From the UHGV virus genome UHGV-1484817: DNA of 64,000 nucleotides; one strand, given 5' to 3'. Below are positions 56,766 to 58,369 of this stretch, piece by piece. Position 1 is the stretch's first letter; each line of letters begins with the position of its first letter. The notes below the pieces were generated by a model, which worked only from the letters and a program-made list of their open reading frames with translations, ran no database searches and was not told where the DNA came from. The position numbers and the translations under genes are program-made. Source of the stretch: a virus.

Positions 56766-57551
56766 GCATTCACCGCAACGGAAAGAGCATTCTTGGTGGA
56801 CCTGTAGATTGGGATATGAACCCGTTACAGGAGAATGCTCTTACCTGTTACGTGCTCCGTTTCGTGGAGCTAACGGCGGGTGATCAGACCGCACCAGACT
56901 GGACTTATTTCAGCGTTATGCTCATGCCAGAGAATCAAACTGTGATGGTCGGTGCTGAACTCCGACACAGGGTTGTAGCAAGCCCCGCAAAGCGCGCACT
57001 ACTGTAGTTGCGGCACATCAGCCTGTGCATTCACCACAATGTTGAGAACACTGGTTGTCACGCTGCAACGCAACATTTATTCGTAGATTGGGATATGACC
57101 CCGTTACGCCAGTGTTCTCAACGTTATAGTGCCGGTTACGGTTCCGGCCAGGCCTCTTCCTCAACGGGGTGTTCTCCATACGGACTACCGTTTATTGGTC
57201 GTTCCTGCGGTTTATGTTGTGAAGCCAGATGCTTATCTTCTGGTTGCTTCAAAGAGCTGCACTTCATCACAACGGTAAGAGCACTCGATGCATTTAAGCC
57301 AAGCCCCATAAGGGAGAATGCCCTTACCTGTTGTGTTGTGATGACCGGTGCTGATCTCCGGCTTGCGGTTATTTCAGACTCTCACGGGCGTTTAATTGCC
57401 CCGCCGAACAGCTCTTTTCCGCAATAGCTGCAATGTCTTTCGCGCATCAGCCTGCGCATTCATCACAACGGTAAGGGTACTTCGTAGGGATTCGAACCCT
57501 CTGCCAAGCACGGCGATCTCCGACGTCGCAAAATACCCTTACCTGTTGTGT
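56766..57551. repeat. Array of four imperfect stem-loop repeats (about 95-110 bp each) adjacent to trnT/trnA
   Basis: Each unit is CATTCA(C/T)C(A/G)CAA(CGG), a 10-16 bp inverted-repeat stem around a variable loop, then ACCTGTT(G/A)(T/C)GTG; the last unit (about 57470-57543) has a tRNA T-arm (GGTTCGAATCC) and runs into the 3' end of tRNA-Thr. Confidence 0.6.
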
Positions 57552-57627
57552 TGGTGCCGGTTAACGGACTCGAACCGCTGACATCCTGCTTACAAGGCAG
57601 GCGCTCTACCAACTGAGCTAAACCGGC
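57552..57627 (-). tRNA. trnT: tRNA-Thr (anticodon UGU)
   Basis: 76-nt cloverleaf GCCGGTTTAGCTCAGTTGGTAGAGC...CTTGTAA...GGTTCGAGTCC...CCA. Confidence 0.9.
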
Positions 57628-57629
57628 AT

Positions 57630-57704
57630 TGGCGATGGTGGATGGATTCGAACCACCGACCAGTTGGTTAACAGCCAACTGCTCTACCGCTGAGCTACAC
57701 CATC
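57630..57704 (-). tRNA. trnA: tRNA-Asn (anticodon GUU)
   Basis: 75-nt cloverleaf with acceptor stem GATGGTG/CACCATC, anticodon loop CTGTTAA, T-arm GGTTCGAATCC and CCA. Confidence 0.9.
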
Positions 57705-58369
57705 ACTTGCCGGGTACGTCTCCGGCGAGGGCTTCCACCTCCGTATGCTTTTCGGCGCACCGCGCCCTGGCTGCAATTCGGTAACAGGGGATGCACAACC
57801 CTGGCTTCCAGCGTGATTAGCGCCTTCAGCATGACGGGATATACCCGTAAATTCGTGGAACTGTACCCAAAGTGCTGTTAAGCACCGCTGTTACGCTGAA
57901 AAGAAAACGCAACAGGAAAGGACGCTGACCAACAGATGGCCCCTTCTCGTTCATCTGGTTAATCACACCAGCGCCCTTACCTGTTGTGCCTCCCCGTTCC
58001 CTAATACACAGACGGGGACACTCTGCGGTCGATTTTTTGACGGGGGACGACTCATACCCCGTGGCATCTGGCTTCTTAGGCCGCTACCATCATCAGATCA
58101 TCGTTTGCATTTACTTTAATGGTCAGTTTCTAAACCGCCGCAAAGTCGCTAACCATGACGAAAACCCTGAAAAAAACGCCCACCCGAAGATGGGCAAACT
58201 GGAAGCTCGTAACGCACTTCGGCGTTGCCACTTAGGCGCATGGTCAACCTGGCAACTCGGTGGTTTGTCTGGGAGGGCTAGGCCCAGCCATGCTTACCGC
58301 CGCGCCTGTCGCGGCTAACAGCTAAATCGCTCTATAAATCACGATTCATTGAGGCGATATTACACTAAT

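Follow-up and report, generated by a model that had tools for sequence, protein, structure and literature searches.

An array of alternating conserved RNA modules around the tRNA genes of the ban operon region in a P1-like phage-plasmid

The virus genome UHGV-1484817, analysed here as a single stretch of 64,000 nucleotides (nt) termed the window, corresponds to a P1-like phage-plasmid. It carries an array of structured RNA modules interspersed with transfer RNA (tRNA) genes, and the 1.5 kilobases (kb) around this array display 99.9% identity to Escherichia coli plasmids and 98% to P1. In reference P1, this stretch falls within the C1-controlled ban operon, which runs from the ban promoter and operator through a 'dicF-like' leader to trnA (Asn), trnT (Thr), the opposite-strand upl/plp, tciABC, trnI and ban. 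An earlier note, made from the letters alone, had described four repeat units with shared flanks at this place; we found two kinds of modules, namely long-stem hairpins (H) and a second conserved element (S), arranged in the order H5, tRNA-Asn, tRNA-Thr, H4, S34, H3, mini-S, H2, S12, H1, and an S-like element with a terminator. All RNA features are given in the minus-strand sense, i.e., that of the tRNAs and of the ban operon. Both ARAGORN and the Rfam tRNA model recovered tRNA-Thr(UGU) at 57552-57627 and tRNA-Asn(GUU) at 57630-57704 (74.9 and 73.9 bits, respectively), placed within the array with H5 on one side and H4 on the other, and a third tRNA was called in the window at 55476-55551. An intrinsic terminator at 58170-58195, at the end of the ban-operon leader (the P1 'dicF-like region'), lies upstream of the entire array.

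Five minus-strand hairpins, H1 to H5, were identified, whose stems measure 19-23 base pairs (bp), longer than the 16-17 bp previously estimated, and carry one bulge or mismatch. H1 (56854-56771), recovered as inverted repeat I2 and by folding, encloses the cargo CCUGUAACGGGUUCAUAUCCCAAUCUACAGG followed by UCCACCA; H2 (57131-57032; inverted repeat I1, folding z of -6.3) has a 23-bp stem and the cargo hairpin ACGGGGUCAUAUCCCAAUC; H3 (57335-57268; supported by folding and by stem alignment) encloses CCCUUAUGGGGCUUGGCUUAAAUGCA; and H4 (57550-57464; inverted repeat I7, repeat D8 and folding) holds a tRNA-like cargo devoid of a D-arm. These are the four units of the earlier note, which are real, whereas the fifth, H5 (57988-57908; arms CACAACAGGUAAGGGCGCUGG and UCAGCGUCCUUUCCUGUUGCG), had been overlooked; it lies upstream of tRNA-Asn, closes a module resembling the tag region of transfer-messenger RNA (tmRNA), and aligns in register with the other H stems. 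The 3' flank motif formerly noticed beyond tRNA-Asn does recur, at 57973-57988, not as an isolated flank but as the 5' arm of the complete H5.

The repetitive character of the units was confirmed by a repeat finder, which recovered the flanks as two four-copy families (D1 at 56769, 57030, 57263 and 57459; D3 at 56837, 57320, 57535 and 57973) as well as the inverted arms of units 1, 2 and 4 (I2, I1 and I7). Units 1-4 fold as long hairpins, as had been proposed, with z values of -4.0 to -6.3 on the minus strand (none of 200 shuffles was as good) versus -2.6 to -3.7 on the plus strand. An alignment of 32 distinct H stems, including the five from the window, revealed changes on both sides in 17 of 21 pairs; 91.9% of the stem cells were paired, versus 38-50% with slid partner columns, and G-U pairs outnumbered A-C on the proposed RNA strand (60 vs 14), although the copies were chosen by pairing with G-U allowed, which inflates both the paired fraction and the G-U excess. 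The stem sequence of H2 is unlike that of the other H stems, the differences being compensated. In general, the H helix spans about 20 bp, and its sixth pair is often followed by a bulged A; the predicted 19-23 bp reach the length of an RNase III substrate (a helix of at least ~20 bp, or two turns).

The cargos enclosed by these stems, among them a D-armless tRNA-like domain and a YCAUA-loop hairpin, are interchangeable, as one cargo may be found in different stems and different cargos in one stem; for instance, the H3 cargo CCCUUAUGGGGCUUGGCUUAAAUGCA is also present in Mooglevirus and IMG/VR contigs, enclosed by different stems. The H4 cargo comprises an anticodon-like arm (GCGAC-GUCGGAG-AUCGC), a long variable arm and, at 57500-57486, the T-arm AGGGUUCGAAUCCCU that had already been noticed in unit 4 (U4), and it recurs in the lambdoid contig L031. 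As previously described, this unit adjoins the 3' end of tRNA-Thr, its 5' end lying one base past the CCA, and the T-arm cores of U4, tRNA-Thr and tRNA-Asn are exactly 78 nt apart (repeat D8); thus, H4 occupies the slot of a third tandem tRNA. A GGUUCGAAUCC-type T-loop next to an acceptor 3' strand was found in U4 only, the loop of U1 and U2 being YCAUAW. The suggestion that the units are decayed tRNA duplicates therefore fits U4 alone: the other cargos are unrelated to tRNA, and the retention of cargos and stems in distant phages argues for function and not for decay. Neither are the units ordinary tRNA genes missed by eye, or pseudogenes, as ARAGORN and Rfam called only the three known tRNAs and none of the units. 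Conversely, a real tRNA is found in the H position, with leader-trailer pairing, in a Massilia contig and in contig L127, where S begins right after the discriminator base.

The supposed spacers between the units turned out to be the second conserved element, S, found after each downstream hairpin. The best-conserved piece of the region consists of the 3' arm of a unit and the sequence that follows it, and this junction pattern, present in at least 120 IMG/VR contigs representing 94 distinct contexts, was used to define S. Its consensus is 5' GUGGUG-AAU-(GCGCA GGCUGA UGCGC)-variable insert-(GCCGG AGAUCAGCA CCGGC)-CACCAC 3', i.e., a closing helix, AAU, a hairpin (P2), a variable insert and a second hairpin (P4), with a total length of 62-373 nt (median ~122). 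Scanning of the window with a covariance model of the S core (R1) gave significant matches only to S34, S12 and mini-S, on the minus strand only. S34 (57469-57335), matched in two halves of 41.7 and 21.2 bits, displays the closing helix GUUGUGAUGA/UCAUCACAAC (helix P1 of the element), AAU, P2 as GCGCA-GGCUGA-UGCGC, a 79-nt insert, and P4 as GCCGG-AGAUCAGCA-CCGGU. In S12 (57040-56939; two halves of 36.0 and 22.9 bits), P2 is GCACA/UGUGC and P4 is GUCGG/CCGAC, each compensated relative to S34. The mini-S that follows H3 (57273-57216; 29.6 bits, E 9e-6) combines an S-type closing helix with the P4 hairpin CCAGA-AGAUAAGCA-UCUGG and lacks the canonical P2; a relative was found in Salmonella phage Sasha. 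After H1, a terminal S-like element (56649-56779), with the layout GCGGUG-AAU-hairpin...hairpin-CACCGC, has a closing helix that continues straight into a U-tract.

Among 57 distinct S cores, five pairs of the closing helix and four of P4 displayed changes on both sides. The three outermost pairs of the closing helix, which are independent of retrieval and selection, were paired in 73% of cells and covaried (e.g., GAU/AUC and CCU/AGG). The loops GCUGA and UCAGC are complementary over 5 bp in every one of these cores; the P2 loop is essentially invariant, hence only wobble-compatible changes could be scored for this loop-loop pairing, and only such changes were seen. P4 directly adjoins the 3' strand of the closing helix and would stack on it, in the way that a T-arm joins the acceptor stem, and the insert takes the position of the anticodon arm; the modelled shape of S as a whole resembles that of a tRNA. 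The base at position -1 is usually U and that at +1 usually G. One type of S insert, present in L103, L091 and L106, copies nt 243-272 of 16S ribosomal RNA (rRNA), with 26 of 30 positions identical, and by eye the match extends further with compensated stem changes (UAGG..CCUA to AUGG..CCAU); this similarity suggests that the insert mimics an rRNA helix.

Both kinds of modules are coupled, given that H lies directly upstream of S in 56 of 84 canonical S elements and that the bases GUG are common to both. Furthermore, the arms are complementary both ways, and the 3' arm of one module also pairs with the 5' arm of the next, so two ways of folding are available to the transcript, one closing the H cargos and the other the S elements. 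The array displays gains and losses among relatives: in reference P1, exactly one H+S period is missing, and the junction falls within the 23-nt shared arm; Ro157c2YLVW is without H4 and S34 and has a tRNA-Tyr; and phage D6 has a tRNA-Ser and another H in its array. In the latter (L004), the tRNA-Ser(UGA), of class II, is a fourth tRNA located within the array at 2638-2724, and the D6 record puts the tRNAs on the strand opposite to that given by ARAGORN. Concerning strandedness, all 32 tRNAs located within 1 kb of an S are on the same strand as S. A same-strand tRNA lies within 500 nt in 14% of S contexts, against a chance estimate of ~3%; in eight contexts a tRNA starts 7-38 nt downstream of S, and in the Massilia contig the 3' end of a tRNA whose CCA is not encoded lies one base before S. 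H and S are thus selected RNA structures, modular and in the sense of the tRNAs, and the idea of structured RNAs on the tRNA/ban strand found support in strand-specific folding, stem covariation and co-orientation with the tRNAs.

An alternative view of this modularity is that the repeats act at the DNA level, as inverted-repeat recombination sites or as cassettes resembling integron attC sites or miniature inverted-repeat transposable elements (MITEs), with the hairpins as a by-product. Every module is bounded by the same short inverted sequences (CACAAC...GTTGTG), the number and content of modules vary among close relatives, with a P1 deletion junction in the 23-nt shared arm, and the same cargos appear in unrelated phages. 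Nevertheless, we consider this very unlikely: the stems stay paired through compensatory changes, which implies selection on structure and not on a protein-binding DNA site, tRNA orientation is strict (32 to 0), and G-U exceeds A-C on the RNA strand, with the bias mentioned above. Integron attC cores have the form RYYYAAC/GTTRRRY, and the flanks (A)CACAAC...GTTGTG(R) differ from them at the third core position on both sides; attC and MITE identities were discarded on this account and on that of stem covariation, no search for IntI having been made. Besides, no dedicated recombinase travels with the modules, and homologous recombination between the repeated arms explains the insertions and deletions without a special system.

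A further alternative is that the plus-strand open reading frames (ORFs) crossing the array, upl and plp in P1, are real genes and the RNA structures incidental. The P1 and RCS47 records annotate here Upl and a 'putative lipoprotein' Plp, and the ORF at 56678-57007 matches PHROG 7444. However, no Pfam family was found for these ORFs and no PHROG match for the second one, while the PHROG matches obtained are clusters without assigned function, one of them end to end, and so give no independent evidence of coding. The plp of P1 overlaps tRNA-Thr on the opposite strand; the ORFs encode 63 and 125 amino acids (aa) in P1 versus 109 and 139 aa in the window; and the gain or loss of entire RNA modules moves their boundaries in near-identical relatives. 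In most RefSeq and PLSDB records the region bears no annotation, and conservation tracks the pairing of stems and not the reading frame. The plus-strand ORFs are therefore probably spurious, as the earlier note had held, and the contrary view strikes us as barely credible.

Between the leader terminator and H5, at 57990-58160, lies a tmRNA-tag-like module composed of a pseudoknot-like leader, a 10-codon ORF and two covarying hairpins. The ORF (58108-58076) encodes ANDDLMMVAA*, beginning with a resume codon of the GCN type and ending in a C-terminal degron of the hydrophobic-Ala-Ala type. Nine variants of this tag were found in 25 distinct contexts, and all of them keep the 10 codons, the stop and the frame, with synonymous differences and covarying flanking hairpins; homologues in lambdoid, Ackermannviridae and Mooglevirus genomes read ANDNVFLAVA, ANEEMYLAVA, ANDDVVLMAA and ANDEQFLAVA, among others. 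Such modules are also located at 1330-1410 of L005 (Citrobacter phage Moogle), 1270-1360 of L006 and 1250-1340 of L008, each after a pseudoknot-like hairpin and an A-rich stretch. The tag of E. coli ssrA (the tmRNA gene) is ANDENYALAA, and the phage tags likewise start with GCA AAC GA(U/A), end with a hydrophobic residue followed by AVA, VAA or MAA and a stop, and are preceded by an A-rich stretch after a pseudoknot-like hairpin; in addition, some H cargos bear ssrA-like T-arms. By contrast, beyond the tag start there is no significant nucleotide similarity to E. coli ssrA.

A complete tmRNA was considered and discarded for the window. A tRNA-like domain (G3-U70 acceptor, T-arm and CCA) was not found there, including in the leader and the H cargos, nor in P1-like elements; some H stems have a G-U pair that is not conserved. 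ARAGORN called no tmRNA in the window, and the Rfam tmRNA models tested (RF00023, RF01849-51 and RF04321) remained below threshold, with 24.1 vs 47 bits for tmRNA_permuted and 14.1 vs 84 bits for beta_tmRNA; the only similarities to E. coli ssrA and rrnH that BLAST returned were of T-arm size, besides one insert resembling 16S. The missing tRNA-like domain and the sub-threshold scores led us to record 57990-58160 as a tmRNA-tag-like module and not as a tmRNA. In the Moogle homologue, ARAGORN calls a permuted tmRNA with the tag ANDNVFLAVA. At 790-870, the same genome has a circularly permuted tRNA-like order (T-arm, acceptor 3' strand, GCCA, AACA, acceptor 5' strand and D-arm), and three ordinary tRNA genes separate this arrangement from the tag module.

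Fragments of the array match unrelated phages, including lambdoid phages, Klebsiella siphoviruses, Sashavirus, Ackermannviridae and Ounavirinae, almost always in unannotated intergenic DNA. A 25-nt S signature was present in 58 species-representative genomes, including some from Enterobacterales, Aeromonas, Oceanospirillales, Moraxellaceae and Martelella, from the Betaproteobacteria Janthinobacterium, Massilia, Undibacterium and Xenophilus, and from two metagenome bins labelled Geobacteraceae and Verrucomicrobiota; these 25 consecutive bases are identical across Gammaproteobacteria (several families), Betaproteobacteria and Alphaproteobacteria. The S34 variant was detected, with 97-100% identity, in 845 of 5,426 complete E. 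coli genomes (~16%), at 715 chromosomal and 236 plasmid places, and no annotated feature overlaps its copies among the matches listed. Rfam 15 reached threshold with no family on any S or H copy tested. Literature searches on P1 ban-operon RNAs, phage tmRNA-like elements and tRNA-like phage motifs yielded no description of these modules; the works met on the topic were those on STnc100 and PasD, treated there as function-unknown markers of Stx-type prophages, and the tmRNA database, whose supplements hold no phage entries. H and S, both of them present in hundreds of proteobacterial phages and prophages, belong, then, to a widespread module family and are not a local oddity of P1. While the structured units of the earlier note stand, its scope did not reach the alternating S elements, the tag module or this wider family.

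Regarding neighbouring sequences, the absence from the window of tciA-C, known from reference P1, was confirmed: in place of tciA-tciB-tciC, the minus strand at 55579-56623 encodes a membrane protein of 78 aa and a 275-aa protein of the SPFH/Band-7 family (Pfam PF01145, E 1e-30), an arrangement shared with Ro157c2YLVW. From H5 to tRNA-Asn (57705-57907, minus), ~200 nt contain several hairpins, such as ACGGGUAUAUCCCGU, and no ORF support. Two further conserved modules are located between S and H on the minus strand, at 56855-56938 and 57129-57215: one ending in a CUCC-ACGAAAC-GGAG hairpin, with relatives in L013, L031 and L106, and another ending in GCCGG-AACCGUAA-CCGGC, with relatives in Sasha, UPM2146 and L112.

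Among known RNAs, tRNA is one that S resembles in outline. The helices of S follow one another as in the cloverleaf: a helix like the acceptor stem, a link of 3 nt, a D-like hairpin whose loop has GG, and a 5-bp T-like hairpin contiguous with the 3' strand; S occurs in tandem with real tRNAs, 1-12 nt away, and its usual U at -1 and G at +1 are the bases that E. coli RNase P prefers. Unlike tRNA, S has neither an anticodon arm nor CCA, its loops of 6 and 9 nt are Watson-Crick paired, its closing helix varies from 6 to 9 bp, and it was unmatched by the tRNA model and ARAGORN. Judged by a cloverleaf that has D, anticodon and T arms and scores at least 29 bits, RF00005 and ARAGORN called the three known tRNAs and no H or S unit; at 56930-57560 and E of up to 10, the best match of the tRNA clan, on U4, was tRNA-Sec with 14 bits (E 9.2).

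The terminal S-like element resembles STnc100 (RF02076), which it matches at 56657-56777 (minus) over positions 31-147 of the 206 of the model, with 32.7 bits and E 2e-4, below the gathering score of 47; no match of this model was found on S34, S12 or mini-S. Both share a (U/C)GGUG...CACC(A/G) closing helix and AAU, after which come one hairpin, a variable central part and a final hairpin that directly adjoins the 3' strand, and STnc100 and PasD, like the modules, occur in lambdoid and Stx-phage regions downstream of Q. On the other hand, R1 does not match the STnc100-like element, and the loops differ, being GCUAAG/AGGCA against GGCUGA/AGAUCAGCA in canonical S, so that the loop-loop pairing is not common to them. 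STnc100 and PasD are prophage-encoded small RNAs (sRNAs) of Salmonella and pathogenic E. coli, and the Pas sRNAs, including PasD, were found by Hfq RIL-seq, in which interacting RNAs are ligated and then sequenced (bioRxiv 10.64898/2026.05.13.724894).

With respect to the H hairpins, the rRNA leader-trailer helices and the RNase III hairpins of T7 and lambda also have a helix of ~20 bp, with a bulge or mismatch, flanking a structured cargo within a long non-coding transcript, and H shares with them a boxA-like run (GCUCUUU) beside a GU-rich run; in contrast, the boxA-like bases of H are on the 3' (trailer) arm, inside the helix, and the cargo is of 25-160 nt and not rRNA. Theta ribozymes, related to those of hepatitis delta virus (HDV), were reportedly located directly 3' of phage tRNAs by Kienbeck and colleagues in 2024; S similarly abuts the 3' end of phage tRNAs or tRNA-like RNAs and could define their 3' ends, although it lacks the nested double-pseudoknot helix order and matched no Rfam ribozyme family. 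Searches for self-cleaving ribozymes in Rfam 15 (hammerhead, twister, twister-sister, pistol, hatchet and HDV-like) gave none, either on 54000-60000 (E of up to 1) or on 56930-57560 (E of up to 10); a hammerhead was discarded since the CUGAUG of P2 is partly base-paired and lacks the GAAA/helix II context. YrlA or bacterial Y RNA (RF02553) was likewise rejected, its sole match (22.1 vs 69 bits) falling over the true tRNAs and not over the units; the Rsr (Ro) gene was not searched for.

The position of the array in its operon bears on a different account, in which S, possibly with H, is a cis-acting transcription element, namely a put-type or boxA/Nus-type antiterminator or an anti-Rho device, that lets RNA polymerase cross ~1.7 kb of untranslated RNA and terminators toward ban, or toward the late genes in lambdoid phages. 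The 'dicF-like region' of P1 (58170-58262 in the window, minus) is a leader of ~160 nt, whose terminator is GCCCAUCUUCGGGUGGGC followed by U7; expression of the ban operon needs readthrough, since this strong terminator precedes the tRNAs and ban, and the whole array comes after it. No sigma-70-like promoter was found in 55400-58450, against 3.0 expected from shuffles, a result consistent with the array being co-transcribed from the annotated ban promoter. The same RNA islands come after tR'-like terminators in lambdoid contigs, with H/S directly following them in the PR'-to-holin leader, or else in the PL leader. Terminator-like sites are ~2.5 times commoner in the 120 nt after S than further downstream (17% vs 7%), a modest enrichment that does not discriminate among the hypotheses. 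Moreover, the extreme conservation of S across classes would agree with S binding some conserved host machine, RNA polymerase for example; of the 10 positions specified in the boxA consensus GYTCTTTAANA (PMC5725501), the H 3' arm GUGCUCUUUCCGU matches 7; and a perfect rrn-type boxA (UGCUCUUUAACAAU) is present ~50 nt upstream of S in L025 (IMG/VR). This last boxA sits between an early-type promoter and S in an operon leader.

Even so, antitermination appears unlikely. The boxA-like bases are locked within the H stem with three consensus misses, and an rrn/lambda boxA in H was accordingly rejected, the dominant 3' arm GCTCTTTCCGT reaching only the same 7 of 10 specified positions inside the stem. 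HK022, the put paradigm, whose cis-acting elements are located downstream of PL and PR, lacks the S and H signatures: its region 22000-40751 gave one isolated match to the S 5' motif, without P2 or P4 signatures, none to the P2, P4 and H 5'-arm motifs, and one isolated match to the H 3'-arm motif, a test of sequence that stands apart from functional analogy. In addition, lambdoid late operons already use Q, S is also found between genes, after stop codons and inside tRNA arrays, and the last S-like element, with its U-tract, should terminate instead.

The nature of the cargos raises yet another possibility, i.e., that stable RNAs of the host (tRNA, tmRNA and rRNA helices) are imitated by the modules, on conserved scaffolds, as decoys titrating host factors or anti-phage nucleases directed at tRNA-like RNAs. 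H cargos include tRNA- and tmRNA-like T-arms, such as GUGGGUUCAACUCCCAC in L034, compared with the T-arm of E. coli ssrA; the H4 cargo, conserved from P1-like to lambdoid contexts, has an anticodon-like loop that retains U33 and, at 37, a purine; the 16S-like S insert carries compensated changes beyond the copied part; and the tag module is found in the same islands. A tmRNA-like RNA of mycobacteriophage DS6A that lacks a coding sequence (CDS) was reported to inhibit the host tmRNA (PMC11915505). Most cargos, however, have no recognisable host counterpart, no candidate target factor has been named, and mimicry would leave the invariant S core unexplained, all of which makes this possibility quite improbable.

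We tentatively prefer, with a confidence somewhat short of even, to read the region as a self-punctuating polycistronic array of small structured RNAs, in which S is a punctuation element or an sRNA scaffold. Its minus-strand transcript would start at the C1-controlled ban promoter and include tRNA-Asn and tRNA-Thr; we infer transcription of the array as a single unit, the enzymes that process it and its biological role. The H helices would form first, during transcription, and by their length would be expected substrates of the host RNase III, which in E. coli acts on helices of ~20 bp. Cleavage at H would split the transcript into tRNAs, H cargos and S elements, and would free the shared GUUGUG bases so that the closing helix of S could form. 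S would then fold into a tRNA-shaped body, with the closing helix (6-9 bp) as acceptor stem, P2 as D-arm and P4 as T-arm, and with the 5-bp GCUGA:UCAGC loop-loop pairing standing in for the D-loop/T-loop elbow. Polycistronic tRNA transcripts are separated by RNase P, and this enzyme would be the obvious candidate if S serves as tRNA-like punctuation for end maturation. Otherwise, S could be the nuclease-resistant scaffold of a stable sRNA whose activity resides in the variable insert, in parallel with the prophage sRNAs STnc100 and PasD.

Several observations weigh against this preferred reading. When 1 kb was folded globally to minimum energy, the H hairpins appeared but not the closing helices of S, with which the H stems compete. 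The closing helix and P4 of S add up to 11-14 bp, versus 12 bp in tRNA, there is no CCA, and the Rfam tRNA, tRNA-like and ribozyme models gave no significant match on S. The parts assigned to RNase III and RNase P are deduced from shape only, the array is not mentioned in the one P1 RNA-seq study found, and the pairing statistics of H bear the selection described above. Furthermore, only a minority of S elements are near tRNAs, many being located after stop codons or in operon leaders, so tRNA maturation cannot be their general role. Finally, the 25-nt identity of the S 5' half across classes exceeds the need of a passive processing signal and suggests a sequence-specific partner.

That passive processing leaves the near-invariant S core unexplained is the main reason to keep more novel readings in view, and a broader one is possible, if doubtful: H and S together may constitute an undescribed, horizontally mobile RNA cassette system of Proteobacteria phages. 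As parts of this single proposal, complementary arms would flank interchangeable cargos (tRNAs and armless mimics of them, a tag module of the tmRNA type and a mimic of a 16S helix) and would permit two alternative folding registers of the transcript; the S core would be a new functional RNA class, either a mimic of the tRNA elbow that a universal host machine reads (RNase P, the ribosome or RNA polymerase) or else a self-cleaving ribozyme of a new kind maturing the neighbouring RNAs; and the tag module beside them would act as an unusually built trans-translation device encoded by the phage.

P1 is among the phages most used in genetics, and where its ban operon is annotated with two hypothetical proteins, over ~1.5 kb, there appears to be instead a dense array of conserved structured RNAs. 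Conservation such as that of the S core usually marks a direct interaction with core host machinery. If H and S are processing or scaffold devices, they would explain how tRNAs and sRNAs are expressed from long untranslated operon leaders, and the modules could then serve as RNA-insulator parts. If the tag module works, temperate enterobacterial phages would carry their own trans-translation tags.

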